DNA of 64,000 nucleotides from an uncultured Chlamydiae bacterium (GCA_963713615.1 CAVQMM010000001.1:3328001-3392000); one strand, 5' to 3'. Counted from the stretch's first letter, positions 20,101-55,910 are shown. Notes: a model not told the origin generated them from the letters alone. Translations and numbers: made by a program.

Positions 20101-22706
20101 ACCTAGGCCCCTGCACCACACGGACCTTCTACGATGGCATGGGAAAGGTCTACAAGATCATCGATGCAGAAGGTAACGAAACCATTATCCACGATGACTA
20201 TAGTCACCTGAATGCCCATGGACAGAAAGTTCTGTGCACGACCACCATTGATCCCCTTGGAAATGCGACGATTGCCACTTCAGATACTCTAGGACGTATT
20301 GTAAGTATTGTTCGCAAAGACGTTATGGGCCAGGAAATAGCCTGTGCCACGCAGCAGTTTGACGGCAACGGTCGACTCATTAGACGCGTGGATACCATTA
20401 AGGGGGCGAATGCCCCTGATCGTAACCTCATTACCGAACGTCAATATGATTCCGTCGGGCACCTGGTAGGTCTTTATGAGGCCGTGGGGACCCCTAAAGC
20501 CCGTCGAACCCTATACACCTATAACAAGGCTGGGGAGAAAGAGTTCGAATTTCTTGCAGATGGCGTGACCTTGCATTACGAATATGACTCTCAAGGGCGT
20601 CTCGCCTGTTACAGTAGCTCAGACCAAACAGTGCATTATCGCTATACCTATGACGCCAACAACAATGTTCTGGCAGTGGTCGATGAAGTTCAAGGAACGA
20701 CAACTTTGCGCAGTTATGATTGCGCAAACCGACTGACTCAGGAGATTCTCGGGAATGGCTTAAAGGTTCGCTATCAGTATGACGGCATAGGGCGTATGAC
20801 GCGAATGGGACTGCCAGATGAAAGTGGAGTCACCTATACCTACAATGCTGCCCATCTCGAGGAGGTGAGCCGTATAGACCCCACTGCCCAAAAGCTCTAC
20901 AGCCATGCTTACCTAACCCATGATGCTTCGGGACATGTGACCGCGTCTCAGCTGATCAAAAATGCAGGAGACATCACCTATACCAGGGATAAGCTCTCTC
21001 GCTTGCACCAGATGAAATCGTTGCATTTTCAAGAAGACATTCCTCTTGATGGCTACGACGCTGTAGGCAATCTGTTGACCAAGCATAGGCGCGATATCTT
21101 TGGAGAAAACACGTGCAGATATGCCTATGATGATCTCTATCAGCTAGTGCGCGAAGAAGGCATGTCCAATCATGCCTACGCCTATGATTCGCTTAACAAT
21201 CGTCTTAGTAAGGACGACGCCCATTGTGAAATCGATGAAATCAATCAGCTGCTTAGACAAGGTGATGACACCTACACCTATGATGCGCGGGGGAATCGCA
21301 CAGCCCATAGCGCAATTCAGTACGCCTACGATGCCCTAGGCAGGCTCACAGAAGTAAGGAGAGAAGAAGGACGTTGGTCTTACCAGTATGATGCCTTCAA
21401 TCGACGCATCAGCAAAACTCGCTTCAGCTTGTCTGACGAAATATTAAGTGTTGAACGGTATCTTTATAGTGGACATTTGGAGCTTGGAGCATTCGAAGAA
21501 AATGGCATTCTTCTGCAATTTCGTATGCTTGGTAAGGGGCTAGGGGCAGAGATTGGAGCAGCTGTTGCGATCGAAATTGGAAATGAACTTTTTGCGCCGT
21601 TGCACGACCATCAGGGAAGTGTTGTTGCCCTTCTGGATCCAGCGAGCGGCAACCCTGTGGAGGTGTATCGCTATACTGCCTTCGGAGAAGAGAACTGCTT
21701 TGTGAAGGGGTCTACGGGAGACTGGACGCACACTCTATCGATTAATCCTTGGCGGTTTTCTAGCAAGAGATACGATCCTGAATCTGGATTGATCAACTTT
21801 GGACGTCGTTATTTTGATCCAAAGGTAGGGCGGTGGGCGACACCAGATCCCAAGGGTTATGACGAAGGCCCTAATCTTTATGCTTATCTATGCAATAGGC
21901 CCCTGACATTTTACGATTTGTATGGCCTTCAAGTTACATCCGAAGGGTACAATTTTCAATTTGCTGACACCTATGGAGGGGCATATACAATAGGAGTTTA
22001 TCATGGGCTTTTTCATCCCGTCGACACATGTAGCAAGTGGACCGATTGTGCCTGGGAGGTCGGCTCTGCAGCACATAATCGAGATTGCAGCCACATAGCT
22101 GGTCGCATGAATGAGCTAGGGTTTCGAGGTGTGGCTTTAGCGGGTTTTGAGACCGCCGGCGAAGTCTTTGGAGCCTATATTACGCTTCTTCCCGTTGTAG
22201 AGATAATGAAAGCCCTAGCTTCTACTGTAGCCTTTGAGTACTGTTATGCAGCATATCGATCCGCATCGTCCTTATTCCGCTCGGAAGCGATTGTGACCGG
22301 AGAAGAGCTCTTAGTCACTCAAAGCGAACGTGCCATCGGTGCCGCTCTTGAGGAGCTAGTTATTGAAGAGGCTGCTTTAGCCGGAGGTCAGGGCGACGTT
22401 CAGGTGGTGGAGCGCGTAATTAATGAGACATTACAAGGAAGAGGAATGCTCACTAGCCAGTATCAACTTTCGCCAACCGAAGCACTGGACGCTGCTGAGT
22501 TATTTTTGGGACCTGGATATCGTGAAATTGGGCAAAGTGGAAGTGGTGTTTTTAGAAGTGTTGATGGTTTTAAGCAATTTCGTATGGACACCAATTCAAT
22601 GTTGGGACAACATAAGCCATGGGTTCCCCATGTACATTTTGAGATATTTACCCCAACGAATCTAAGAAGGCCATACGTATCCAACCACGTTCCATTTACA
22701 AACTAA
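17187..22706 (+). CDS. Rhs/YD-repeat protein with N-terminal signal peptide and C-terminal toxin domain
   Basis: Many YD repeats; Rhs core PWRFSSKRYDPESGLINFGRRYFDP..GRW.TPDP; cleavage-like PLTFYDLYGL; His-rich C-terminus QFRMD...HKPWVPHVHF...NHVPF. Confidence 0.92.
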   Translation: MLHRHVFIVALFCFFAVAMQGEEPTNILPHAEVSGDSSTLVAGCVNVITGSYSDAQLDFVLVGPEALPFQRFYCSADWKGGSFRDGWNHNYAYEGKIDHENGKYWYARIPENSGGSMLYFSHNKVKVWGEKKEHVRYDDFIQFDTNKVKFLKGLTNIGHGAIGARTNLRNQTADWRPNQEQFVVHQPDGTTRFYKVKKKEHTPKITHEKRPSGNQIHYQYNNNELSKVTALDATGKVTFGSLSFTHTNWKESFPVLTVTGSDGQNVRYTFHKSKRRKEKEGDWRFYVYHVNRSTGPPEEYKYSSPDKLHNEQIIQKSRPEGRIQQIQYYQPGDNYVGDILVKCSDDPEKDTRPGKVSLLKAPMGHDATLHITHRFLYNHGPSHNNFKEYTSGIVDVLDAVNHKVRYCFSGKDRITAIERYTGQNVPKKYSTEKFYWGSHRDQECNLTTKALLDANGVARSCRYLEYDQHHNVIAEHIVGNLRGKNPAGPALDDLGIPHYNGGDRYTIQRSYYPPQAFNLLKSELLPNGRLTEYRYWGSTPKLQAKLVSHNGHTIARQFHEYDQFGSPLKTIVDDGEAATSNELLGVTVRRITYLTPRVQTPCMGLPEVIAEHYYDTHTRTEHHLSEVANIYSREGRLTDQHHLDADDLLRYSLHWEYDPMGNVTLERNAIGQITQRWFDPNGNKIKEQGPCELYHTEYAYDYSNRLVSEKKVCTDGQCYSQSYRYDLLGNRIASIDIFGNETNYEYDEFHRLVRTTLPPTVDANGNLVRLKTHRNYDIAGNVIAETDVMGNVTRKEFNIRGQPTSIQYPDGTSEHFEYYLDGSLKCKTAQNGTSTHFHYDVLGNVIRKETFSSAQELLSTTTATYRGALLLSETDANGNSTHHAYDAAGRPIKVTTEIGWSRFEYDSLGRKCKTIQWIGPSEDDVQVSYVEYDLLNRVVEERLEDRAGTVFDRSLYEYDSAGHRCAVTTFSDLGPCTTRTFYDGMGKVYKIIDAEGNETIIHDDYSHLNAHGQKVLCTTTIDPLGNATIATSDTLGRIVSIVRKDVMGQEIACATQQFDGNGRLIRRVDTIKGANAPDRNLITERQYDSVGHLVGLYEAVGTPKARRTLYTYNKAGEKEFEFLADGVTLHYEYDSQGRLACYSSSDQTVHYRYTYDANNNVLAVVDEVQGTTTLRSYDCANRLTQEILGNGLKVRYQYDGIGRMTRMGLPDESGVTYTYNAAHLEEVSRIDPTAQKLYSHAYLTHDASGHVTASQLIKNAGDITYTRDKLSRLHQMKSLHFQEDIPLDGYDAVGNLLTKHRRDIFGENTCRYAYDDLYQLVREEGMSNHAYAYDSLNNRLSKDDAHCEIDEINQLLRQGDDTYTYDARGNRTAHSAIQYAYDALGRLTEVRREEGRWSYQYDAFNRRISKTRFSLSDEILSVERYLYSGHLELGAFEENGILLQFRMLGKGLGAEIGAAVAIEIGNELFAPLHDHQGSVVALLDPASGNPVEVYRYTAFGEENCFVKGSTGDWTHTLSINPWRFSSKRYDPESGLINFGRRYFDPKVGRWATPDPKGYDEGPNLYAYLCNRPLTFYDLYGLQVTSEGYNFQFADTYGGAYTIGVYHGLFHPVDTCSKWTDCAWEVGSAAHNRDCSHIAGRMNELGFRGVALAGFETAGEVFGAYITLLPVVEIMKALASTVAFEYCYAAYRSASSLFRSEAIVTGEELLVTQSERAIGAALEELVIEEAALAGGQGDVQVVERVINETLQGRGMLTSQYQLSPTEALDAAELFLGPGYREIGQSGSGVFRSVDGFKQFRMDTNSMLGQHKPWVPHVHFEIFTPTNLRRPYVSNHVPFTN

Positions 22707-41093: not shown

Positions 41094-41150
41094 TAGCTGA
41101 TTGGTAAGCGTCAAATGGAAAAACAAGTTTTGTGAGTGAAGGAGTCGATT

Positions 41151-43442
41151 ATGGTTTCCCCATTAGCTCCAAATGCTTCAACACCCCTTACGCAGACTGA
41201 GCTGCTTGCTGAACAGCATCTGAATCTTTCAGGTGCCCTGGATAATATCCTTACAGCAAAATCAGACAATGACATTAGCATAAGCTCTTACCTTGAAGTC
41301 CAATCGTCAGCACACTTGGACCTTGACCAAACGCTCTATAATATAGAATTTACGGACTCCACGCTGGCAAATCGTTTTGCTAGTGATGGACTAGACCAAA
41401 TGGACTCATTAATTCAGGAGTATAACGCTCTTTATGGTGAGTTTCAGGCGAGCCAGGTCAATACAGCGGCAACGGATCCAGCCACTACGAATCTGAATAC
41501 ATATGCTACTAGTACAAATACAAGTATTTCTCATACTCAGACGAGCGCAACCACTTATAATAATGCAGTAGGCCAGTATAATTCAGCTGCGAGTACTTTT
41601 AATAACGAGGAGACGGCGGGTTTTTCCAGTCCGGCAGCTGAGGATGCGGCGATTAATGTATACAATCTTGCTGTAACAAACTACAATAATGCAGCCAATA
41701 CATACAACAATTCTGTTAACACAAGCAATGTATCTATTACCACCTATAATGCTCAAGTAGATAACTATAATGCGACAACCTTGGTGCAAACTAATAATGA
41801 TATTGCTGCTCAAAACGCGGCAAATCCCACACAGACACCGTTACCACCACAACCTCCAACGCCTGATATGGCTCCAATTCCTACCGTAGGCACCCTCTCA
41901 ACGCTACCATTGGTCCCTGTGACAGGTCCTGTTCCTGTAGTATCTACCGCTCCCACACCACCATTGATTCCGGTCTACATTCTTCCAAGTGCGTTAAATT
42001 TCTACAAAAATTATTTAGTTCCTTCCTTTTTGCCTTCGCAATTACCAGCTTTAGTCTATCTTACAACAATTCAAAGACTGTTTAACCAAATTTTAGATCA
42101 AAGTAATCCTCTACCAACAACGATCAAGCCTAATGCTGGTACTCAAGATATTACTCGACCTCGTGCCTATATCAATCGTGACGAAACAAACTCTATATCT
42201 ACTGGGGGAAGCGGAGTTGGTGGGGTATCAACTAGTGTATTGGCTATGGGTTTAGACAATGCGGAGATGGACAGTATTCTGGGAGAAGGGGTTGTAAAAC
42301 AAATGTTCGACAATACTACTGTCCCAGCTCCACTTCAGGAACGATTGACAGCACTCGTATCTACATTATTCATACGCAGTTCTGTAGCTGGATCTCTACC
42401 AGCTGTGCAAACATTTCTGGGATCTGATCTTTCCCAAATTGAGAATCAATCGGGTGCGGGTCGTGCGGCGAGTTCGCTTGGGACCACTGCGGCGATTCTG
42501 GGATTATTACGCGGAAATGCTCTACAACAGCCAATCTCGACGATCATTAACACAACCACGCAGTTGCAAAGCCTCAATGATACTGACAAGCAAAATTTAC
42601 AATCGGGTTTACAAGCAATCACCTCAACAGCCTTACTTAAGCTTGGTCTGGGTTCTTTAGTGCATGAAACGCAAACCCCCGGCCTATTGAATGTGATGGA
42701 TGCAGCAGTGATCTCAGGAACCCCGCAAAATGCCAATTCTCGCTTTGGTGTTGTGGTGACGAGTTTAGATAATCTAAAGGCTGCATTTGGTTCTCAGGAG
42801 GTTTCTAGCTTACTTAGCCAGTACCTTGCTAACCAGATCGTCAATGCTCCAGGAGTGAGTCCCACCCAAGTCAATGATCTAGCCAATCAAATAGCGACCA
42901 ATGTGACAACCGAACCCACCCCTGCGACGCCTGCAGCCCTACAGCAAATTATTCAACAAAGCCTCGCTTCCACGCTGGGATCCAACGTCTCTTCCGCTCT
43001 CGTCCAGCAGCTCACTGGTCAGGTTTCCTTGTTCGCCATAGCCGGTGCAACACGTAGTGATCTTTTACAAAATCTCATTTCTTCAGCTGGGCCGGCTAAT
43101 GCAGAGAATTTAACAGATCAAACGATTGTGCGACTTTTTGGATTCTCGCCGAGCTTTGGTGAAGGTGAAATCATTCAACGTCCTAGTGAAGAAGCTACAG
43201 CGCTTCCTGCTGTGACTTCGTTAGCAGATAGTGCTCAGGCTTTGAATAACTTAGACGCCAGCAAGGCTGGGCAAATGGTGGCCGACAACTTTAACACGAG
43301 TAGGGCTCATCAGGATGTGCAAAACTTAGATGCATTTTTCCGTGAGGTGATTGACCCAGGCCAAATGCTGGTCGGTTTGATGTATGAAGGACATCGCGGA
43401 ACAGCCTTTAAACGTGGAAAAACAGATATTGATTTAGCTTAA
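41151..43442 (+). CDS. Candidate T3SS-secreted protein (Asn/Thr-rich heptads, Pro-rich linker)
   Basis: AAGGAG RBS; YNNAV..YN heptads; Pro-rich segment; heads the translocon region. Confidence 0.75.
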   Translation: MVSPLAPNASTPLTQTELLAEQHLNLSGALDNILTAKSDNDISISSYLEVQSSAHLDLDQTLYNIEFTDSTLANRFASDGLDQMDSLIQEYNALYGEFQASQVNTAATDPATTNLNTYATSTNTSISHTQTSATTYNNAVGQYNSAASTFNNEETAGFSSPAAEDAAINVYNLAVTNYNNAANTYNNSVNTSNVSITTYNAQVDNYNATTLVQTNNDIAAQNAANPTQTPLPPQPPTPDMAPIPTVGTLSTLPLVPVTGPVPVVSTAPTPPLIPVYILPSALNFYKNYLVPSFLPSQLPALVYLTTIQRLFNQILDQSNPLPTTIKPNAGTQDITRPRAYINRDETNSISTGGSGVGGVSTSVLAMGLDNAEMDSILGEGVVKQMFDNTTVPAPLQERLTALVSTLFIRSSVAGSLPAVQTFLGSDLSQIENQSGAGRAASSLGTTAAILGLLRGNALQQPISTIINTTTQLQSLNDTDKQNLQSGLQAITSTALLKLGLGSLVHETQTPGLLNVMDAAVISGTPQNANSRFGVVVTSLDNLKAAFGSQEVSSLLSQYLANQIVNAPGVSPTQVNDLANQIATNVTTEPTPATPAALQQIIQQSLASTLGSNVSSALVQQLTGQVSLFAIAGATRSDLLQNLISSAGPANAENLTDQTIVRLFGFSPSFGEGEIIQRPSEEATALPAVTSLADSAQALNNLDASKAGQMVADNFNTSRAHQDVQNLDAFFREVIDPGQMLVGLMYEGHRGTAFKRGKTDIDLA

Positions 43443-43636: not shown

Positions 43637-44824
43637 ATGGATATGCCTATGATGGTGGCTGGTGTGGGTACCGTCCCTACCGCACTAACCGAGACAGACC
43701 AAGTCGTTGTTACGGATTATCAAAATCAGGTTGCTATTCTACAGAATATTTTAGATCAGGCGCCTGGCACGCTCACCGCCGCTGATGCAAACACCGTCAG
43801 CCAGGCCATCATCAATCTGCAAAATTTGGCGGCTTCAGGGCTTCCAGCAACCCATAATAATTATGCTGGTGTGCCCACGACGCAAACTTACTACATGACT
43901 ACAGACATGGCAAGGCAGACAGACTTGCTTATGCGATCGATGATGGCTGCAGGGATCACCCCAGGAAGTGCGATAACGCTCACACAACTGCAAAAATGGC
44001 AAGATCTAGGAGTTAATGGGGTTAGCGTTGTTGTCCAACGTGCAGCTCAAGCGGTAGACACCAACCGCTCTTTGCAGGCGCTTATCGAGACGGAATATGT
44101 CGCTACAGCTAACAATGTGCTAGCGACCCAATTGACGGCTCTTGAGGCTGCTATGAGTACAACGCAAGCGATTACGGTGACGCTAACCAGCTTACAAAGT
44201 GTCCGTAACTTAGTCGCTCCAGAAAACAAAAGTGGTGTCAGTTTAAGTGCATTACCTACAGGTGTAAGTGCTGCTGAGACGGCTTATAATACGGCTGCCC
44301 AATCCGCATTTGGAAACCCGATTAATATATATGTAGCTTTTGGTACCCAAAACCCACAGGACGTCATCGCCCAAGTAGCCACAGACCGTGCCCAGCTAGC
44401 TGCTGAACTAACGCAATTGGATAAAATCAGTCCGCCTACCATTGGTTCTACCGGTCAGGCTGTTTATACTCCCAATAGTCTTCAAGCAGAAGTCTCTGGT
44501 GTCCTCAGCGATATGACAACCTACCTGCCTATAGGAGCCACCAGTCCCAGTGATATCACCCTTTCCGGCCTAGAAGCATGGATAATCGATAACATGAACC
44601 AGCATTTACCCCAAGACTCGCCTAGCGCTGTTGCTTTGGCTGGTAAAATTGGGCAAACCTTTACTGCTGCAGTTGCAGCCGCCACAAACTTAAATGATAC
44701 GCAAAAAGAACAATTTCAACAGTATATGTTCATCTTTCAAGAGTTTTATCAGTCTGCTGGAGCTATAATGACTCAGATTAACCAAATATTAGCTACTATG
44801 GCTCAAGATATGGGTCAAGGGTAA
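43637..44824 (+). CDS. Candidate T3SS tip/filament-like secreted protein
   Basis: Helical, T/Q/A-rich; C-terminal amphipathic helix FQEFYQSAGAIMTQINQILATMAQDM; functional call is inference. Confidence 0.6.
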   Translation: MDMPMMVAGVGTVPTALTETDQVVVTDYQNQVAILQNILDQAPGTLTAADANTVSQAIINLQNLAASGLPATHNNYAGVPTTQTYYMTTDMARQTDLLMRSMMAAGITPGSAITLTQLQKWQDLGVNGVSVVVQRAAQAVDTNRSLQALIETEYVATANNVLATQLTALEAAMSTTQAITVTLTSLQSVRNLVAPENKSGVSLSALPTGVSAAETAYNTAAQSAFGNPINIYVAFGTQNPQDVIAQVATDRAQLAAELTQLDKISPPTIGSTGQAVYTPNSLQAEVSGVLSDMTTYLPIGATSPSDITLSGLEAWIIDNMNQHLPQDSPSAVALAGKIGQTFTAAVAAATNLNDTQKEQFQQYMFIFQEFYQSAGAIMTQINQILATMAQDMGQG

Positions 44825-44957
44825 TAATAAATTATAAAAGGTATATTAAATTATTAAACTATATTATAAAATAATAATTAAGCGAGAGGCAGTTAACACC
44901 TATCGGTAATATTGATTCTATCGTCTGTCTTTAGCAGAGTTTGGAGGATATAAATCC

Positions 44958-46151
44958 ATGACAAGCGCTATTCCTAATACTGCTCCCCCCGTTAAACCTA
45001 CAGATCCCTTTTTTAGTATTCTTGCTGACACAAATTACAGCGCTGATCCCTCAGGATTAACAGCGGCAGAGGCAGGAATCACCAGTCAATTTGGCTCAAC
45101 AACAAACTTTGATAATCTACTGGCTAGCTGGGATATGGATAATGGCGATCCAGCTACGCGAAAAGTATTTCCACGTACTTACCAGCAGTTTGTTACAGCC
45201 GTAGAACAGGCATCCGGAAGCACAAACGCCACCGCAATCATGAATGGTTTTGAAACCGAATTCGCTCAGATTTTGCAGATTACAGGAGGGATATCCGGAG
45301 GCGGAGGAGATTACACTGGTATTCCTACTAGCCAACTTACGACACAGTTTCAGGACGCTTTTTCCTCATTTCTATACAACTTTCAATTTCAGGTAGATAC
45401 GAATGCAGACGGAACACCTGGTCCGACCGATGGTGCGGCGGGACCAACGAGTTATTTCATTCAGCAGTGGCATACATGGATGACGGTGACTGCCACGAAC
45501 TTAACTCAGTATGCGACAGGTCCTACAGCGAATGTGTCGACTTTTCAGCAGATTTATCAGGCTTTCTTCCCCAATGGCACAGAAGCGCAATTCATTGCTT
45601 TGCGTAACCAGCTAGTCCAGCAAGAGATTAATGATCCGAACTTTAATTACTTTATACCCAGCCACTTCCTCTCGCAGTGGTATACGTTGGTGCAAACTGC
45701 TTATTTAACTCCATTATTAGGAGATAGCTCAGCAGCGCTTACCGATTCTGATCAATTAACCGTAATCTGGAAGGTATTTAATTTATGTGTACAGGTCATT
45801 GCTAATTTAGAAACACTCTCGACAGTTGCATCGGGCCAGCTGAACTTTTTGACTAACTACCAAGAGGCCTACACAAACTTGATGGCACAGATTCCGGTAT
45901 TCACAGCGGGGGATGGCAGTCCATTTGGTGGCACAGATAGTACCTCTGCAGAAGCCAGGCAGGAGTTGAACCCAAAGAACCAAACGCTGACGCAAAACTT
46001 ACAATCCTACCGAGATCTGCTAGGCGACCAAGCGCAGACAGTTCAGTCCAACCTTAACCAACTTAATCAGTCTGTGAACCAACAATCAAGTTTGTGTGAT
46101 TCTATTTTGCAAGAGATGAACACGATTCTCTCCTCGATATTCCCGGCATAA
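44958..46151 (+). CDS. Candidate T3SS tip-like secreted protein
   Basis: C-terminal coiled coil QTVQSNLNQLNQSVNQQSSLCDSILQEMNTILSSIF; lies directly before the class II chaperone gene. Confidence 0.6.
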   Translation: MTSAIPNTAPPVKPTDPFFSILADTNYSADPSGLTAAEAGITSQFGSTTNFDNLLASWDMDNGDPATRKVFPRTYQQFVTAVEQASGSTNATAIMNGFETEFAQILQITGGISGGGGDYTGIPTSQLTTQFQDAFSSFLYNFQFQVDTNADGTPGPTDGAAGPTSYFIQQWHTWMTVTATNLTQYATGPTANVSTFQQIYQAFFPNGTEAQFIALRNQLVQQEINDPNFNYFIPSHFLSQWYTLVQTAYLTPLLGDSSAALTDSDQLTVIWKVFNLCVQVIANLETLSTVASGQLNFLTNYQEAYTNLMAQIPVFTAGDGSPFGGTDSTSAEARQELNPKNQTLTQNLQSYRDLLGDQAQTVQSNLNQLNQSVNQQSSLCDSILQEMNTILSSIFPA

Positions 46152-46254: not shown

Positions 46255-46836
46255 ATGGTTGAATCAAAGGGAGTTAAGAAAGAAGCTGCAGAGCTAAATG
46301 GGCCGCCAACGAAGGAGGAAATGGATAAGATCGTGAGTGATATATTTGAAAAAGACATGTTGCCTAAGGATGCAATTGGCATACCGGATGATGTCATGGA
46401 GGGCATATATGCCCATGCCTATCGCACTTACAATGTGGGAAAGTACCACAATGCTGCACAATTATTTCGTCTATTAATCATGCTTAATGCCCTAGAACCT
46501 AAGTATGTTCTAGGTTTAGCTGCATGCCATCATCTGCTCGGACAGTATGACAATGCCCTCATGATGTATATGGTTGTTGAGGTCCTTAACCCTAAGGATC
46601 CTATGCCAAACTACCACTCAGCGGACTGCTATATCCGGATTGAAATGCAAGAGGATGCCCTAGAACAGATGCAGAAGGCATTAACTAAGTGTGGCGAATT
46701 ACCACAGTACACAGCTCTGAAGAACAGAATTATTGTTACCATCGCCGCCCTAGTTAAGCAAGTGGCTGACATCAAACGCGCTGAGGCGGAAGAAGCATTA
46801 TCAGAGAAAGCCGTTGAGAAGAAGAGTAAAGGTTAA
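46255..46836 (+). CDS. SycD/LcrH-family class II T3SS chaperone, copy 1
   Basis: MEGIYAHAYRTYNVGKY..A..LFRLL, YVLGLAACHH and PNYHSADCY TPR motifs. Confidence 0.92.
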   Translation: MVESKGVKKEAAELNGPPTKEEMDKIVSDIFEKDMLPKDAIGIPDDVMEGIYAHAYRTYNVGKYHNAAQLFRLLIMLNALEPKYVLGLAACHHLLGQYDNALMMYMVVEVLNPKDPMPNYHSADCYIRIEMQEDALEQMQKALTKCGELPQYTALKNRIIVTIAALVKQVADIKRAEAEEALSEKAVEKKSKG

Positions 46837-46861
46837 AAAAACAAGAATTGGGAGGTTTTGG

Positions 46862-48724
46862 ATGCCCGGAACCATGCCAGGAGTTGGTGGTGGTGTCGAT
46901 GGTCCAACATACGCCGATTACCAAGATGTAACTGACCAAAACCAACTTGCCGGTGCTGCAAACGCTGTACGCGAAAAGCTCAATCTGCTTCCTGATACCT
47001 TAGTTTTGACAATTGCTAAGTTCTCGGGAGAAGTGAAGTTGTATGCTGCTAAGGCTGATGCGCCGGTAGTGCCAGCATTCATTAAATTGCGTTCTAGTGG
47101 CTCCCTGGAGACCACTAAGAATTCTCTTGATGATATGCAGAAGGAGTTTATGCGCTTTGTCGAAATGCTGCCTCCCAAGCTGCGCGTACTATTGCTGAAA
47201 AATATGGGGTTGCCAAAAAAATTGCAGGACCCTGAACTCAATGGTTTCGAAAAAAGCCTTCATGAGCATGTGAAGGTCAAGCTTTGGGCGCGGTCAATCC
47301 TTAATCGCTTCCGCAGAGGGGATAAAGAAGAAGGTGATGATGAGGAAGAGCGCCGCGAACGACAAGGCATCTTCTCTCTGGAAGAAGAAGAAAATTTCCT
47401 ACCAGAAGGGACGATAATCCCAGAAACTCACTATGTTCCCATCGGTAAAGTTGATCCTTATGAACAAACGGCTAGCGAAGTGACCAAGCAGATACAGGCT
47501 AATACGGTGTTTATGCTGGAATATCAGCTGGGTGTTTTAAAACTCTATCTATCCTCTTTAGAGACTCAGGATCCCGCTCGCGAACTATTAAAGGACTTCC
47601 CGCGATTAATCTCCCGAATGATAAGACAATCCAAAGCTTTTGTTAATGTTCGCAACTTCCTGGACTTTGAAAAAGCCAAGAAGGTTGCTACAGGTTTAAA
47701 AAAAATTGATCCTTCGCTGATTCAAGAGCAACGCAGATTGCTGGAGATCGCTCAAAGGTATAGTTCTGGGGGCCCGTCGCAAGGTGCCGTTGCATTTGCC
47801 ATAGCATCTTTGAACCTTGCTGTGATCGGTTGTCAACTACTACGTAGCAGCTGTTCGTTATCAGCCCTATGCACGGAGGGCTCTGCGTTGTTACATGGAT
47901 GCTTACTTAGTTCCTCTACAGTTGTTGGTAAAGCCTTGATGGGCATTTCCAATAAATTGTCGGAGGGATTTCAATTTATGGGCCTCTCTCCAGGGGTCGT
48001 CCAGATCCTGCAGATGGTGTTGCTGTGTATCGGTCCAGTGATGATGGTAAGCGCCTTAGAGGACACCTTGCCAGTGCTAGCTGCCTATTCAAGCGACACT
48101 GCAGAGCACATTTTTGGAGCCTTAGAAACATCGGGGCTGCAAGCTGAAGAGGAAGAGCCTATAGAAGGCGAAAAGCGCTTAGACCAAATATCAAGAGAGT
48201 CCGTCGTCAGGCTAGCTTCAACGGTTACAATGATGACCAAAATTGCCTTTCATGTAACGCAAAAGCTATTGAAAAATATTACTGGCCCCTCAGAGCAGAG
48301 ATCTTTTGATGTTGAAGCTCTCTGTGTGCAATTGGTCATCTTGCTCTCAGCGGTACTCAGTGGAAGTTATTTATTTGAAAAAGTAGGAGATGCTAGCGCA
48401 GTCCTCTTTGGCAACCTAATAACAGGGACCTTGCAAGCACATGCTGTGCAGCTACAGCATCTCATCGACCTTGGAGAGATCAAGCCTGAAATAGCAAAGG
48501 CCTTAAATGGCCTTAGGCTGTCCGAGATAGCCTTTGAAGGCCAACGTATCTCCGAGTTACTTAACTCAAGAGAATCCGCCCTAGAGATTCTTGGAATACG
48601 TGCAAAGGATTTGAAACAGGGTTGTGAAGAACTGATACAACTTGCCGCGTTTTTCGCACTGCTACAAACCCTGTTGAGGCAGGAACGTAGGCAAGTGACA
48701 CCAAACGTCAGCGTTCTCGCATAG
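46862..48724 (+). CDS. Divergent CopB-like protein
   Basis: Blocks aligning with 49447-51525 (EFMRFVEMLP..LR..LLKNM versus EFMSMVNQLP..LR..LLKDM); hydrophobic segments; GGGAGG RBS before ATG 46862. Confidence 0.65.
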   Translation: MPGTMPGVGGGVDGPTYADYQDVTDQNQLAGAANAVREKLNLLPDTLVLTIAKFSGEVKLYAAKADAPVVPAFIKLRSSGSLETTKNSLDDMQKEFMRFVEMLPPKLRVLLLKNMGLPKKLQDPELNGFEKSLHEHVKVKLWARSILNRFRRGDKEEGDDEEERRERQGIFSLEEEENFLPEGTIIPETHYVPIGKVDPYEQTASEVTKQIQANTVFMLEYQLGVLKLYLSSLETQDPARELLKDFPRLISRMIRQSKAFVNVRNFLDFEKAKKVATGLKKIDPSLIQEQRRLLEIAQRYSSGGPSQGAVAFAIASLNLAVIGCQLLRSSCSLSALCTEGSALLHGCLLSSSTVVGKALMGISNKLSEGFQFMGLSPGVVQILQMVLLCIGPVMMVSALEDTLPVLAAYSSDTAEHIFGALETSGLQAEEEEPIEGEKRLDQISRESVVRLASTVTMMTKIAFHVTQKLLKNITGPSEQRSFDVEALCVQLVILLSAVLSGSYLFEKVGDASAVLFGNLITGTLQAHAVQLQHLIDLGEIKPEIAKALNGLRLSEIAFEGQRISELLNSRESALEILGIRAKDLKQGCEELIQLAAFFALLQTLLRQERRQVTPNVSVLA

Positions 48725-48760: not shown

Positions 48761-49420
48761 ATGGTCGATCCCAAAGAATTGGATGAAGCCCTCAAAATGG
48801 TGGCTGATGAAACTTCAAAAGAGCTAGAGCCTGCTGTTAATGCGGTTGTGGATAACATGCTGAATAAGCAGATGTTCCCCATGGACGCTATGGGCATGGA
48901 CCATAAGATTGTCGAAGCAACCTATATGCAAGCTGTACACCTTTATAACACAGCGCAATATATAGAATCAGCGAAAGCCTTTCATGCGCTTGTGTTGCTT
49001 CACCCCGCGGAGGTAAAGTTCTATATTGGCCTAGCAGCCTCCTATCACATGGTAGAAGAGTATGATGGTGCCCTCACAATTTATGGATACATCGGTGTAC
49101 TCGATCCAGAAAGCCCAGTCCCTCACTATCATGCATCAGATTGCTACCTCAAGATGGACATGACCTCTCCAGCTATCGCTGAGCTACAAATTGCCATGCA
49201 GCTATGTGGTGATCAAGCACAGTACGCTATGATCAAAGACCGATGTCAAATCACAATCAATGCTTTGCAAGAACAAGCAAACACATCAGCTGCTCCAAAC
49301 GTATCTTCAGGACCACCACCGACGATATCAGCAGCACCACTGACGAAATCTTCAGCACCATCGATGGCGCCAAAACCACCTACCATAAAGGTTGCGCCAC
49401 CAGGCATTAAAAAGAAATAA
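48761..49420 (+). CDS. SycD/LcrH-family class II T3SS chaperone, copy 2
   Basis: EATYMQAVHLYNT, FYIGLAASYH and PHYHASDCY motifs; Pro-rich tail. Confidence 0.92.
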   Translation: MVDPKELDEALKMVADETSKELEPAVNAVVDNMLNKQMFPMDAMGMDHKIVEATYMQAVHLYNTAQYIESAKAFHALVLLHPAEVKFYIGLAASYHMVEEYDGALTIYGYIGVLDPESPVPHYHASDCYLKMDMTSPAIAELQIAMQLCGDQAQYAMIKDRCQITINALQEQANTSAAPNVSSGPPPTISAAPLTKSSAPSMAPKPPTIKVAPPGIKKK

Positions 49421-49446: not shown

Positions 49447-51525
49447 ATGTGCAGCTCACCAATAGGCGGCGGCGGAGCCAACATTAATGATTTCAGTGCG
49501 CTTTTGGGAGGTGTGAATGGTCCTGATCAAACAACTGGCACAAACGCTACCACAGCAACGCAACAAGCCAATCCTGCTCCTGCTCAAGATGTCCTTGAAT
49601 TTAGATCCCAGCTTCAAGCTCCTCAAACGACTACGTACCAGGCGCCAGCTAACAAACCGACATTATCTCCAACTGTGCAACTGCCACCTCCACCTGCTGG
49701 AGCTAGTCAGGCACCTGCCAATACGAGCAATCAGCAACAAGCTGAATTCATGAGTATGGTGAACCAATTGCCTGCAGGTTTACGCAGTTCACTTCTTAAG
49801 GATATGGCTAAGCCACTAGCTCAACGAAATCCACAGCTTACCGGCTTGGAGTCAACACTGAATAAAGCCGCTACCGTTGCCACTTGGGCAAAACAAATTA
49901 ATCAAGGTAATGCCCAAATGAGCAATGTCCCGGCGGGCCTGCAAAGCCAAGTAGCTCAAAGCCTTCAAGGTGGAGGTCAGCCCTCCGCACAGCTACAGAC
50001 ACTTATGGGTAAAGCCTCTCTAACGCCGCAGGATGCGCAAATGCTCAAGAGTCTGGCTCAAACACCTGGAGCTGTCAGTCCTCAGCAATTCGCTGCGATT
50101 AACGCCAAACTCCAACAAGGAGGATTTGGTACCGTCACTCCACCATCAGGCGCAGGTCTTGCTGCTACAGGAGCTGCAGGAGGGGCTGTTCCTATGGGTA
50201 AGCCGGAGCCGGTTAATGGAGTCATGCCTGCCGCTATAGATGTAACCTCAATGTCACCCGATCAGATAAATAAACAGATGCAAGTCAACTCGGTTCAAGC
50301 TCTCAAAAATCAAGTCGCAGTAGCTCATACACATCTTAAGGAACTGCCGCCGGGGTCTGCCCAAACGACCTTGGCTGACTACCTAAAATGCATTACCTCT
50401 GTCATTACCCAAATTCAACAAATCCTTGGATCAATGAGCGCAGCAGATACTGCAAGAGGTGCAAAGCAGGTCATGGCCGAAAAGGATGATATGGATGCCA
50501 AAATGGCAGCGGCGATGAAGTCTCTTCAAAAAGCCGAGGAAATTCAGAAAGTCATGGGTGTTATTAATACGGTCATGAAAATTCTGGGTCCTTTAGCTGC
50601 TGTCGTTTGCTTGGTACTCGCTATTGCAACCGGAGGTGTTCTGGCTATCTTATTGGCAGTCGTTATGCTCGTCATCGCACTCCTGTCTTCTTGTACCAAT
50701 ATCATCAATGAACTGATGAGTAAGCTCATGAGTGCAGTCACGAGCGTATTCCAGCATATGGGTCTGTCCAGTAATGAAGCTGCTGTCCTGACTATGGTGA
50801 CTATGATTGTTATAACCATTGCATTAGCCGTAGTGACCAGAGGGGCTGTTTTAGAAGAAGCCGGTGGAATGGCCGCTGATGAGGCAGAGGTGGATGCTAC
50901 TACTGCACAAGACTCCATCGCAGCAGGTGCTAAAGGAGCTGAAGAAGGTGCCAAAGCAGGAGAGGACAAAGGTGGGGCTACATCCCTCCAAAAACTAGTA
51001 GCCAATATGGAGGCTGGAAGCGCTGCCCAAGATGTCATGGGGAACAGCAATAATTGCATCGAACAAGGCATGCTACCTATTCTAGAAAAGATGGGCTTTG
51101 ATCCCAAAGCCGCTAAAATGATCGCCATGATCATGCAAATGCTGACCATGATGGTGATCGGTATCGCTGCCGGCGGAGGTCTGAAAGGTATGAGCGACGT
51201 TGCACAAGAAATGGCATCGGCAGGTGAAGAATCTACTGCTGCCCTGATGAACATGATGAAAAACTTACAGACCGCTGTTGAGGCTACCACAGATGCTGTG
51301 AGCTCTATTGGACATCTAGAACTCGCTAAACTGGACATGCAAAAAGCTGATTTAGACGCCCAAACCGTACTATACTCCGCTAATATAGACCTGTTTGACA
51401 AGGACCGCAAGCTCCGCGATTCAAGTACTAAAGCAATCGACGATCTCGTCCAATCATACGGTCAAATGTTTAGCAATATTATAAATAATATGGAAAAAAT
51501 ATTAAGTCAAACATTTCCAGCGTAG
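49447..51525 (+). CDS. copB: Major translocator (CopB/YopB/SctE-like)
   Basis: Follows the chaperone; coiled coil, then long hydrophobic segments (LAAVVCLVLAIATGGVLAILL..., VLTMVTMIVITIALAVVT); C-terminal coiled coil. Confidence 0.75.
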   Translation: MCSSPIGGGGANINDFSALLGGVNGPDQTTGTNATTATQQANPAPAQDVLEFRSQLQAPQTTTYQAPANKPTLSPTVQLPPPPAGASQAPANTSNQQQAEFMSMVNQLPAGLRSSLLKDMAKPLAQRNPQLTGLESTLNKAATVATWAKQINQGNAQMSNVPAGLQSQVAQSLQGGGQPSAQLQTLMGKASLTPQDAQMLKSLAQTPGAVSPQQFAAINAKLQQGGFGTVTPPSGAGLAATGAAGGAVPMGKPEPVNGVMPAAIDVTSMSPDQINKQMQVNSVQALKNQVAVAHTHLKELPPGSAQTTLADYLKCITSVITQIQQILGSMSAADTARGAKQVMAEKDDMDAKMAAAMKSLQKAEEIQKVMGVINTVMKILGPLAAVVCLVLAIATGGVLAILLAVVMLVIALLSSCTNIINELMSKLMSAVTSVFQHMGLSSNEAAVLTMVTMIVITIALAVVTRGAVLEEAGGMAADEAEVDATTAQDSIAAGAKGAEEGAKAGEDKGGATSLQKLVANMEAGSAAQDVMGNSNNCIEQGMLPILEKMGFDPKAAKMIAMIMQMLTMMVIGIAAGGGLKGMSDVAQEMASAGEESTAALMNMMKNLQTAVEATTDAVSSIGHLELAKLDMQKADLDAQTVLYSANIDLFDKDRKLRDSSTKAIDDLVQSYGQMFSNIINNMEKILSQTFPA

Positions 51526-51583: not shown

Positions 51584-52621
51584 ATGGGAAATATTGATAG
51601 CTCAGGATCGAGTTATGAACAGCTACTTCAGCAGCAGCAACAACAACAGGCTGCTGAATCTGCTCAATCTGCACAAGCTGCTCAAGCGACGACGGCAACT
51701 CAAGGGGTTCAGGCTCCTCAGGCTCAAGATCAGATGGTCAGTGCAAGAGGGGCTAGTGGAGTCTCTGCAGCTCCAGCGGCAGGTAGACCTAGTCTACAAG
51801 CGCCTACAAATGACAGCACATCCGCCGCTTCGTGGTTTGCGAACCCTAATGTAGTCGCAAAAGTGGTTAATACAGACAAAGCAGTTGCTGCGCAAGAGCA
51901 GGCTGAACGTCAACAGGACGTGGCTGCTAACAAGGAGCTGGAGGCGACGGAGGCCAACGCTAAAACTCAAGCAGGCCTAACAGAGCAAGCTGGTATGGAT
52001 AAAGCTGCCGGAGACCTGGCGCAAGCAGCTGCTAGCGCAGGATCAGCCGGGGGCGGCGCAGCAGCACTGGCGAAAGATCACAAAGATTCGGTCCAAGAAG
52101 AAAGCGAACTCAAAAAACTCAGTCAAGGCGGTCCCGAAGGCCCGCAAAAAGAACAGATAGCTCAACACGACAAGGCAATCGAGTCGATTCAGAAGCAAAT
52201 TACGGATTTGGGCGACGGCCATGTAGAAGTATCAGTAACAGAGAAAAAAACTAAAACATTGGAGTACGAATCTCAAATACAACAACATAAAGTTGATAGG
52301 GCAAAAGTCATGACAAAGGCCAAGGCTGAAATAAAGGCCGAGCATCAAAGACACAAAGCAGAGCGAGATACGCAGCTACAGGTACTCCAAGGAGTTTCAC
52401 AAACAGGTGGAAGTTTAGGACAAGCAGTTACGGGTTTGGCCTCTTCACAAGCGGAAGCACAAAATCAGGAAGTACAAGCAGTTCAGGACATCAACAGCAA
52501 GTCTGAAGATCAAATGATCAAGGGTTCCGACGCATCCAAATCAGCAATCAACGACCTCATTCAGGCCCAGAATCAGTATATCCAAACGCAAGGCCAAGCT
52601 ATTAGCTTTCGGCCAAACTGA
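51584..52621 (+). CDS. Minor translocator (CopD/YopD/SctB-like)
   Basis: Follows copB; RPSLQAP chaperone-binding-like motif; A/Q-rich helices. Confidence 0.6.
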   Translation: MGNIDSSGSSYEQLLQQQQQQQAAESAQSAQAAQATTATQGVQAPQAQDQMVSARGASGVSAAPAAGRPSLQAPTNDSTSAASWFANPNVVAKVVNTDKAVAAQEQAERQQDVAANKELEATEANAKTQAGLTEQAGMDKAAGDLAQAAASAGSAGGGAAALAKDHKDSVQEESELKKLSQGGPEGPQKEQIAQHDKAIESIQKQITDLGDGHVEVSVTEKKTKTLEYESQIQQHKVDRAKVMTKAKAEIKAEHQRHKAERDTQLQVLQGVSQTGGSLGQAVTGLASSQAEAQNQEVQAVQDINSKSEDQMIKGSDASKSAINDLIQAQNQYIQTQGQAISFRPN

Positions 52622-52969: not shown

Positions 52970-53365
52970 ATGAAACTCGCACAATTGATGGAGCTATTTG
53001 GCAAAGAAATTGGCTTTACCGGGCCCTACCCTCAGAATGATCAGGGTGCCTATGTGGTGCAAATGGAACCAGAGGTATCCTTTCTCGTTACCGATCTTAA
53101 CCCAACCATCAGCCTTTCTTGTGCAATTGCACCTTGTCCTAAGCAAGGCACCGATAGCTTTCATACCCAGATGTTGCTTGCTAACCTGTTCGGTCAAGGC
53201 ACAGAAGGGGCTGTTTTAGGTCTTACCGATGATGGTAATACCTTGACCCTATCAAAAGAAATAGAATACAATATTGACTATGAGCAGTTTAAAGAGATCC
53301 TAGAAGACTTCATGAACGCGATAGACTTTTGGCGCAGTGAGGCCCTTAATCCTAACACGACCTGA
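52970..53365 (+). CDS. scc4: CesT-family class I chaperone (CT663/Scc4-like)
   Basis: MLLANLFGQGTEGAVLGL...F...LEDFMN..DFW; first gene of the chlamydial cdsD operon. Confidence 0.85.
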   Translation: MKLAQLMELFGKEIGFTGPYPQNDQGAYVVQMEPEVSFLVTDLNPTISLSCAIAPCPKQGTDSFHTQMLLANLFGQGTEGAVLGLTDDGNTLTLSKEIEYNIDYEQFKEILEDFMNAIDFWRSEALNPNTT

Positions 53366-53441: not shown

Positions 53442-55250
53442 ATGACAGCAAAATTAATAGCTGAAGAGGGTACTTTAGAGGGCTTAGTTCTCTCCTTCGA
53501 TGAAGGAGATGAGTGGCTCATCGGTCGCGACCCCGACACTTGCCAACTTCTGGTGGAAGATCCAGAGGTCTCGCGAGAACACCTTGTAGCACGGAAACTT
53601 CCCGAAGGCATCGCGGTCGAAAACCTCAGCACAACAAATCCCGCATTAGTCAACGATGAAGTGATCATCGGCTCTCGCGTCCTCAATCATGGCGACACCG
53701 TCAAAATCGGTAGCGGGATGTTTCGCTATTATACGGAAATTGGCGGCCATCAGATGGGATCTAGTGCGTCCAAAGCCGCTGATGTCAATGGAGACGAAGG
53801 TGACGAAGCCGAAGAATCCAGCGATACCCTCTTCGAAGAAGGGGAAAGTCCAGCTGATAAAATGCTCGCTGAAATCGATTTTAATGTCTCTAGCACTGGA
53901 CGATGGATGCTGAAGGTCATCGGTGGGCCTAACCACGGCGCCGAGTTCTCCATGGAGCCAGGCCACACCTATACGATAGGAACCAACCCAGCGGCATGTG
54001 ATATCGTTTTTCACGACGGCACCGTTTCTCGTCAACATGCGAAGCTGAGCATCAGCGCCGATAATCGGGTCGTCCTGCAAGATCTAAAAAGCCGCAACGG
54101 TGTCTATGTCGACGATAAGAAGATCAAGGGCAAAGCGGATTTGGCGTCTAACAGCATGATAGCTTTAGGAACAACACGCTTTATCATTTTCGATCGTGAG
54201 GCTGACCGTTCGACGATCATTACCCCTCTATTGCCCTCAATTGTCAAAACCCTCAAGGAAGAAGACAATAGAAAAACAACCTCCAAACCTAGGCCTAAGG
54301 TTGAAAAGGTCATTGTCGCACCAGCTCCACGACGTGCCAAGAGCGGTAACTTTACAGGTAAACTTGGCCTCCTCATCCTCGTCATTGCCCTCTTTGCCAT
54401 AGTAGGGATGGGGACGACCTCCCTTTTCCGCACCTCTGAAGTCGTGGTACCGCATGTCGATTATAATGCGGAACTGGACAAAATTATGATGGTCTATCCA
54501 ACAGTGAAGTATTCCTTCAATGAGTCAAATGGCAACCTACTGCTCATCGGTCATGTGCTAAAGTCCACCGACAAAGCCCAGCTACTCTACAACCTCGACA
54601 CCTTGCCATTTGTCCGTAACAAGGACGATACTAACCTAATCATCGATGAAGGCATTCTTCAAGATATCAATCAGCAGATTGGCCGAAATCCCTTGTGGCG
54701 TGGTGTTAACATGACCGCTCCCTCGCCGGGGCGCTTTGTCCTTAATGGCTACCTGACAACGCGAGAACAAGCAGAAAAACTCTTCGACTATATCGCTCAA
54801 AACTTCCGCTTTCTCGATCTATTAGAAAAACGCGTTTTTGTTGAAGAGGACGAAATCGCAAGTATTCGAGCTCTCCTGCAAGAACAGGGTTTTAAAGATG
54901 TCGCCGTGCAAATGACCAATGGTGAACTCACCTTGTCCGGTACCATCACCGCCGGCAAAGGACCCATTCTGGAGAAAGTTATTGCCAACTTTAAGAAAGA
55001 TGCCGCCGTTCGCACTGTTAAAAACTACGTAACCGAATTAGAAGTCGAGAGTTCCCTCGTCGATCTTACCGATACCTATAAGGTCACAGGATCCTCAAAT
55101 CGTGGTGGTAAAACAGTGAATATTGTCATTAATGGACGCATACTCGGTCCTGGTGATGTCTTGGATGGCATGACGATTACAGAAATTAAACGTGATGTGA
55201 TATCTTTGGAACGAGAAGGTATCAAGTATAAGATTGAATATAATAAGTAA
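53442..55250 (+). CDS. cdsD: T3SS inner-membrane ring protein with two FHA domains
   Basis: IGRDP..VSREH and VSRQHA..SRNG FHA motifs, TM helix, BON-like periplasmic domains. Confidence 0.92.
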   Translation: MTAKLIAEEGTLEGLVLSFDEGDEWLIGRDPDTCQLLVEDPEVSREHLVARKLPEGIAVENLSTTNPALVNDEVIIGSRVLNHGDTVKIGSGMFRYYTEIGGHQMGSSASKAADVNGDEGDEAEESSDTLFEEGESPADKMLAEIDFNVSSTGRWMLKVIGGPNHGAEFSMEPGHTYTIGTNPAACDIVFHDGTVSRQHAKLSISADNRVVLQDLKSRNGVYVDDKKIKGKADLASNSMIALGTTRFIIFDREADRSTIITPLLPSIVKTLKEEDNRKTTSKPRPKVEKVIVAPAPRRAKSGNFTGKLGLLILVIALFAIVGMGTTSLFRTSEVVVPHVDYNAELDKIMMVYPTVKYSFNESNGNLLLIGHVLKSTDKAQLLYNLDTLPFVRNKDDTNLIIDEGILQDINQQIGRNPLWRGVNMTAPSPGRFVLNGYLTTREQAEKLFDYIAQNFRFLDLLEKRVFVEEDEIASIRALLQEQGFKDVAVQMTNGELTLSGTITAGKGPILEKVIANFKKDAAVRTVKNYVTELEVESSLVDLTDTYKVTGSSNRGGKTVNIVINGRILGPGDVLDGMTITEIKRDVISLEREGIKYKIEYNK

Positions 55251-55667: not shown

Positions 55668-55910
55668 ATGGCAACTAATGAACAAGCGTTTAGTATGAGC
55701 GCTTTAGTAACTATCGTAAACAACTCTACAGTTAGCGCGAAAGCTAAGTTGACCGCAATTCAACAGCGCCGAAGTGCCATCAGCATCGCAGACATGTTTG
55801 ACATGCAAATGCTGATGAACCACCTCTCGCAGATGTCTGAAATGTCAACCGCGATTGTGAACGCTGCAAACTCTGCCATTGTGTCTATGGCTAGGAACGT
55901 CAAAGGCTAA
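55668..55910 (+). CDS. cdsF: T3SS needle subunit
   Basis: ISIADMFDMQMLMNHLSQMSEMST...MARNVKG. Confidence 0.9.
   Translation: MATNEQAFSMSALVTIVNNSTVSAKAKLTAIQQRRSAISIADMFDMQMLMNHLSQMSEMSTAIVNAANSAIVSMARNVKG

Follow-up and report, generated by a model that had tools for sequence, protein, structure and literature searches.

Two candidate needle-tip proteins encoded before the translocator chaperone of an environmental chlamydia and their links to the DUF720 and DUF582 families

Two adjacent genes, here termed ORF1 and ORF2, lie directly upstream of a translocator chaperone gene belonging to a T3SS (type III secretion system) in a 64 000-nucleotide stretch of chlamydial DNA (the window). The source genome comprises 3.97 Mb in three contigs, and the host is an environmental chlamydia as judged from the relatives of this genome and its T3SS genes. 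On profile comparisons, the C-terminal hairpin of ORF2 is homologous over the whole domain to DUF720 (CT847-849 type), and ORF1 is probably related to DUF582. This bridge between the locus and the two families is new and makes the question of the chlamydial needle tip directly testable. On balance, we consider it probable that both proteins are hydrophilic translocators: ORF1 would serve as a tip of the IpaD kind, and ORF2, which carries an optional outer domain, as a subunit of a needle extension or an adaptor.

The locus and its two low-charge proteins

ORF1 and ORF2 (Table 1) are each preceded by a GGAGG ribosome site and end in the C-termini quoted in the original prediction. Charged residues constitute 10.1% of ORF1 and 10.3% of ORF2, as against 11.6-30% in 13 other measured proteins of the window, and in K+R fraction the two rank 11th and 7th lowest, respectively, among the 1450 long ORFs of the genome, some of which are not genes. 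The best 19-residue hydropathy values (1.28 for ORF1 and 1.34 for ORF2) indicate that a membrane segment is absent from both proteins, and the hydrophobic moment of the terminal 36 residues is 1.07 and 1.29, respectively. The original prediction had described two low-charge proteins of ~395 aa ending in long amphipathic helices, and the coordinates, composition, hydrophobic moment and AlphaFold helices all agree with that description. A paralogous relationship between ORF1 and ORF2 is ruled out (BLASTP best E 0.51, profile probability 0.6), and no paralogue of either was found elsewhere in the source genome.

Two genes score above the LcrH/SycD cut-off, the one that follows ORF2 and another at 48761, in agreement with the predicted position of the pair before sycD. 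Of the further names that had been assigned downstream, copB and copD derive solely from hydropathy and gene position: the 636-, 692- and 345-aa genes are not named by any family in Pfam or NCBIfam, and the 345-aa gene is not hydrophobic, an unusual property for a minor translocator in the CopD position. The true start of the 636-aa ORF is likely the ATG at 46862, which is preceded by GGAGG. The N-terminal stretches of the 636- and 692-aa proteins are alike by eye, and this likeness suggests a duplicated sycD-translocator unit. Downstream of cdsD, the core operon includes cdsG, the ATPase gene and a C-ring gene. On the upstream side of ORF1, the 768-aa gene is without a family match; genes of 800-1200 aa hold the same pre-ORF1 slot in several relatives, weak matches connect it to the equivalent-slot genes of two of them (L132 and L134), and it is possibly a third part of the locus.

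Table 1. Coordinates and properties of features in the window
Feature	Position	Strand	Remarks
2758-aa ORF	7524-15800	+	very long ORF
1839-aa ORF	17187-22706	+	very long ORF
514-aa ORF	34182-36390	+	just before efp and an epmA-like gene; resembles an IS66-type transposase by eye
768-aa gene	41136-43442	+	low-charge, Q/N/S/T-rich; adjoins ORF1 on its upstream side
ORF1	43637-44824	+	395 aa; N-terminal domain 1-142, helix 146-190, distal domain ~191-335, C-terminal helix 337-393 (predicted)
ORF2	44958-46151	+	397 aa; optional, repeatable N-terminal domain ~18-253, C-terminal hairpin 265-310 + 328-394 (predicted)
SycD/LcrH translocator chaperone 1	46255-46836	+	TIGR02552 130.6 bits (cut-off 104.8)
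636-aa ORF	46814-48724	+	moderately hydrophobic (best hydropathy 2.12); translocator-like from position alone
SycD/LcrH translocator chaperone 2	48761-49420	+	TIGR02552 113.1 bits
692-aa CopB-like hydrophobic translocator candidate	49447-51525	+	best hydropathy 2.99 (clear); place after SycD
345-aa protein, CopD position	51584-52621	+	best hydropathy 0.99; without membrane segment
CesT-family chaperone	52970-53365	+	before cdsD
cdsD	53442-55250	+	at start of core T3SS operon
CdsF needle subunit	55668-55910	+	80 aa; named from size, position just before cdsG and conservation

Homology to the DUF720 family and probable homology to the DUF582 family

The probability with which the ORF2 hairpin matches the DUF720 profile rises from 8-32 with shallow profiles to 91.5 with 45 rows, and to 96-97 with trimmed deep profiles (E 2.8e-9 to 1.8e-10). 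The score of 56.4 compares with a maximum of 21.2 among heptad-block shuffles, and none of the 30 shuffles scores as high. At the PF05302 cut-off, ORF2 itself has no match and 5 of 48 family members match weakly (best E 0.001). The DUF720 genes of C. trachomatis are presumably CT847, CT848 and CT849, the numbers of which fit the masses in PMC12671076.

With untrimmed alignments, ORF1 and DUF582 are matched at a probability of only 1.1. The trimmed comparison sets the last 250 residues of DUF582 against residues 140-395 of ORF1, cores that were selected after a C-terminal likeness had been noticed by eye, and gives probabilities of 26 in local mode and 40 in global mode over 194 columns (E 7e-4 and 4.9e-5). 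Both scores exceed the shuffle maxima (31.4 versus 25.2 and 26.6 versus 19.9), with 0/30 shuffles as high in either mode, and the last 55 columns align without a gap (E 0.005, versus 0.18 reversed). The ORF1 family stays below the PF04518 cut-off. In the ESM Atlas, ORF1 falls among chlamydial clusters in which LcrV is found on 12% of the members of one (0.96), DUF582 on 54% (0.95, rank 3) and EspA on 12% (0.94), a result that the Atlas itself flags as weak (recognition 1772; only 4 of the 10 best matches share a clan). Based on the shuffle tests, the Atlas lead and the gene order of the sister family described below, the core of ORF1 is quite probably homologous to DUF582 (CT619-621/711/712 type). 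Comparison with DUF582 and DUF720, which had been suggested along with the original prediction, has thus been the productive lead. Candidates rejected in the comparisons are ORF1 as a DUF720 homologue, ORF2 as a DUF582 homologue, and genome G206 as a bridge between ORF1 and DUF582, the weak DUF582 match of which does not lie on its ORF1 homologue.

Profile searches over 300 scored chlamydial genomes detect ORF1 in 61 and ORF2 in 62 genomes, in nearly identical sets that fall in families f1, f5, f6, f8, f13, f17 and f24 and in small families, and neither profile finds a match in f4 (0/29) or f3 (0/18). As the cdsD profile matches 296 of the 300 genomes, these gaps are not due to missing T3SSs. 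DUF720 is present in 48 of the 300 (17/18 in f3, 29/29 in f4 and two weak others) and DUF582 in 49 (18/18 in f3, 29/29 in f4 and two under the cut-off). We take f4 to be the Chlamydiaceae because its genomes measure 1.0-1.4 Mb and carry DUF720 in three copies and DUF582 in four to five. The two distributions are mutually exclusive, DUF582 and DUF720 replacing ORF1 and ORF2 in the Chlamydiaceae and the sister family f3, although this complementarity counts as one lineage-level observation because kin are not independent. In f7, f9 and f10 (135 genomes), none of the four families is found at the thresholds used, bar one weak match.

Gene order was inspected in up to 20 kb upstream of cdsD in 40 genomes, which were picked for long contigs and not blind. 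An ORF2-type gene stands immediately before sycD in all 16 loci with ORF1/ORF2 matches (one at E 0.008), and 14 of these have the order ORF1-type, ORF2-type, sycD; the other two have arrays of four and five ORF1-type genes adjacent, on the opposite strand. Among the remaining 24 loci, three (L114, L115 and L120) carry a DUF720-like gene of 173-183 aa directly before sycD (E 2e-4 to 4e-6), most are without sycD and have an inverted helical-gene cluster instead, and two f3 loci have neither. A DUF720-like gene also directly precedes sycD in L095. Of 10 loci of the sister family f3 fetched around DUF582, 9 have this gene on the same strand as a SycD-like gene and upstream of it by one or two genes; in the 7 loci listed, the chaperone is followed by a hydrophobic gene. 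The DUF720 clusters of f3 and f4 are not near sycD among the matches listed.

Several variations on this arrangement were observed. In f8, arrays of 4-5 ORF1-type paralogues run opposite to the translocator-gene strand (L125:8561-13117 and L126:5246-11175), and L126 has two ORF2-sycD-translocator units; L128 and L129 each have three ORF2-type paralogues in tandem (330-880 aa). In f7, f9, f10, f20, f23, f25 and f30, the inverted cluster lies next to cesT-cdsD in place of this locus, without sycD, and consists of a lysine-rich gene of ~150 aa and 4-7 Q/N/S-rich helical genes (L101, L102, L104, L105, L107, L108, L110, L111, L118, L119 and L121-L123); it is likely a divergent translocon/tip set. 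Extra (second or third) cdsF-like needle genes occur outside the core operon at G014:C35, G120:C4, G067:C18 and G303:C25.

Predicted folds and comparison with tip proteins

The fold searches bear mainly on ORF1 145-395 and the ORF2 hairpin, and barely cover ORF1 1-142 and the N-terminal domain of ORF2. The AlphaFold model of ORF1 (42 rows, pLDDT 85.7, pTM 0.58) consists of an N-terminal domain followed by a helix-domain-helix core (Table 1), and in the family the conserved columns concentrate in the two long helices, with insertions in the middle. The two long helices of the core are predicted to pair in a coiled coil that bears a distal domain, which is the layout of IpaD/SipD, FlgL and FliD. 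Foldseek returns nothing at E 0.001 for the ORF1 model against 350,542 chains; SipD is at rank 1 (E 0.067, rmsd 23, not significant) and SipD/IpaD are also at ranks 13, 20 and 40. In VIA-align, where Z below ~13 is not diagnostic for helical bundles and may reflect a common helical arrangement, the top score for ORF1 145-395 belongs to the unrelated lipoprotein QseG (Z 10.6-10.7), along with FlgL (Z 10.0-10.1, rmsd 3.2-3.3, ~160 residues aligned), FliD (Z 8.9-9.9), sensor four-helix bundles (Z 9-9.7) and flagellins (Z 8.2-9.1). The wide fold search does not list IpaD/SipD among its top 50 matches, and the alignment of ORF1 145-378 with IpaD 132-319 (Z 7.5, rmsd 5.1, 158 aligned) comes from a second comparison only. 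What counts in these matches to a predicted model is the biological families that recur, which are axial proteins of type III systems, flagellar axial proteins recurring across the wide search. A complex prediction of ORF1 140-395 with three copies of CdsF (score 0.01, mark 0.32) weighs neither way.

Pfam, NCBIfam and PDB sequence searches gave no tip-family match for ORF1 or ORF2, and no Pfam match to LcrV, IpaD or EspA was found in 61 (42 + 19) ORF1-type proteins; noelin and spike matches in the sequence searches were rejected as coiled-coil noise. Tip-family profiles of IpaD (32 rows) and EspA (18 rows) were also compared. The hhalign match of ORF1 to IpaD (E 0.036, with 3/20 shuffles equally high) is not significant, nor is the EspA profile test (4/20 shuffles equally high) or the gap-free alignment of the last 47 columns of ORF1 with the C-terminal helix of IpaD. 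ORF2 matches the PF03433 (EspA) profile at E 0.09-0.21, its C-terminal 55 columns performing no better than a reversed template. As the control comparison of IpaD with the EspA profile fails as well (E 0.024), the profile test is weak on tip-family membership. Of the proposed likeness to EspA/SseB- or LcrV/IpaD-type tip proteins, the pre-sycD position, the lack of a membrane segment and the predicted fold of ORF1 fit tip-type hydrophilic translocators; a significant sequence link to IpaD or EspA was not found in these comparisons, and the structural matches stay below a diagnostic level.

The model of ORF2 (pLDDT 78.5, pTM 0.62) is confident in the N-terminal domain, and confidence in the hairpin is only 57-75. 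Fold searches with this hairpin return only generic coiled coils, including the N-terminal coiled coil of IpaB (Z 10.2-10.6) and YscO-like proteins, and EspA is not among the matches listed. The hairpin is the constant part of the family, which is large (676 representatives at E 0.001). Among 48 aligned members, 5 have a length of 150-161 aa and consist of the hairpin alone; the N-terminal domain, which is single in most members, occurs twice in P0073 (792 aa), and the giant P0031 (2185 aa) has seven copies of it, partial or full. Together with the detection of tip-like structural neighbours for ORF1 alone, the low confidence and the nature of the hairpin matches would be expected if ORF1 were the sole tip and ORF2 a secreted or cytosolic helper (ordering factor, pore-protein partner or SycD client) with no extension built. 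We regard such a division of labour as distinctly improbable, since ORF2-type genes occupy the exact EspA/SseB slot and large domains repeated up to seven times, if partially, are easier to place on a surface. In SPI-2-type loci, the pre-chaperone slot holds an EspA-family gene (EspA, SycD, SctE; in the other locus EspA, one unnamed gene and an SseC-type gene).

The chlamydial needle tip has so far been assigned only putatively, to CT584, which is hexameric and gave mice no protection when used as a vaccine antigen (PMC11512284). The source genome has a CT584 homologue (PF17435, E 2.4e-32) as its sole match, at C1:2894673, outside the window. The presence of this homologue and the generic character of the helical-bundle matches could be reconciled with ORF1 and ORF2 working inside the T3SS or in the cytosol, as coiled coils associated with the rod, the ruler or the gatekeeper, and with CT584 or another protein as the true tip. 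However, the CT584 gene is ~477 kb from the ORF1/ORF2 locus, its product is still a putative tip with the properties described above, and the genes of the core operon form a separate set farther downstream, such that we give this explanation very little credence.

Proposed role and comparison with known systems

Once the needle is finished, injectisomes first secrete a hydrophilic translocator, which uses a terminal coiled coil either to cap the needle (IpaD, SipD, LcrV) or to extend it (EspA, SseB, Bsp22); the SycD-bound pore proteins follow. Under the two-translocator reading that we favour, ORF1 would use its long coiled coil to cap the CdsF needle, and the DUF720-type hairpins of ORF2 would be packed into a layer that extends the needle or acts as an adaptor, the optional N-terminal domain being directed outward. 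Together they would provide the platform for insertion of the SycD-escorted pore proteins into the host membrane. We infer that both proteins are exported through the needle and sit at its tip, and likewise their relative order and any polymer that they may build. At 28 nm, the needle of C. trachomatis is short (PMC4682100), which argues against a long filament in that species, and transcripts for the needle and CopB rise late in Protochlamydia (PMC5451489).

Published work on the two families bears on an explanation that we consider less likely but a serious rival, namely that ORF1 and ORF2 are early translocated effectors, placed beside translocon genes only for co-regulation, and that host proteins, ESCRT components for example, are the binding partners of their helical bundles. 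The five DUF582 proteins, probable homologues of ORF1, have been seen in the cytoplasm and the nucleus of the host, and they bind Hrs (PMC5053991); CT620, CT621 and CT711 are scored as secreted and CT712 and CT848 as possibly so (PMC12671076). Paralogue expansion and variable N-termini are typical of effectors too, and a significant link to known tip families was not found in our searches. Such a role is harder to reconcile with the strict pre-sycD position across many families, and with the extreme C-terminal helix being the conserved part. CT619 still binds Hrs when its 89 or 191 most conserved residues at the C-terminus are deleted (PMC5053991); thus the conserved core needs a different function. 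For CT847 and CT849, no conclusion on translocation was reached, and attempts at several C-terminal fusions or transformants did not succeed (PMC12671076).

Should the homologies be borne out, the DUF582 and DUF720 genes of Chlamydiaceae would be the same components as ORF1 and ORF2, moved out of the operon and multiplied. This suggests that the DUF582/DUF720 ‘effectors’ may in reality be needle-tip parts, a proposal that is not made in the titles and abstract openings of the literature found, from which most subscription papers lay outside the scope. As a wider and more tentative idea, which we hold to be possible rather than probable, the chlamydial injectisome may end in a two-component tip, in which a DUF582-type, IpaD-like cap is joined by a DUF720-type extension layer. 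The window would then keep the ancestral operon, whereas in C. trachomatis and its relatives the parts would have left the operon, multiplied (five DUF582 and three DUF720) and been filed as effectors, so that CT712/CT711/CT619-621 and CT847-849, not CT584, would constitute the actual tip, in which paralogues and surface domains could be exchanged for one another. The locus thereby names specific alternatives tied to two families that are conserved in 29/29 Chlamydiaceae-type genomes scored. If true, eight C. trachomatis proteins would be reassigned and the conservation of the C-terminal helix explained, the proteins would be surface-exposed antigens of the kind used in vaccines against other injectisomes, and the tip would consist of two different proteins, the outer domains of which can expand.

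The constant C-terminal core, the variable, optional or repeated outer domains and the tandem paralogues seen here have parallels in flagellins and EspA variants, which speaks for the reading that we favour. FlgL, FliD and the flagellins, which provide the best family-level fold matches for ORF1 145-395 (Z 8-10, within the range of unrelated bundles), share with ORF1 the constant core and variable outer parts, but have no sequence match to it, and the ORF1 gene lies in an injectisome locus. IpaD/SipD (SctA) resemble ORF1 in size class, lack of a membrane segment, adjoining translocator genes and, in the predicted model, an N-terminal domain and a coiled coil with a distal domain. They differ in that ipaD comes after the translocators whereas the ORF1 gene comes before the chaperone, in the mostly helical distal domain of the ORF1 model, in the tandem paralogues of ORF1 (up to 5), and in that no significant sequence or profile match joins them. 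EspA/SseB are similar to ORF2 in that the gene directly precedes a SycD chaperone gene, and the smallest ORF2 members (150-210 aa) belong to this comparison; in weak alignments the C-terminal helices are in the same register, although EspA-family insertions lie mid-protein and the extra domain of ORF2 is N-terminal to the hairpin. DUF582/Effector_1 proteins (PF04518), probable remote homologues of the ORF1 core, have in common with ORF1 the pre-sycD slot in the sister family, the gap-free C-terminal 55 columns and the mutually exclusive distribution, whereas they are mostly 700-900 aa long with large variable N-termini and are called effectors in print. DUF720 (PF05302) is homologous to ORF2 over the full hairpin, again with a mutually exclusive distribution; in Chlamydiaceae it occurs as three stand-alone copies of 160-175 aa away from the T3SS operon, whereas ORF2 adds an N-terminal domain of 250 aa.
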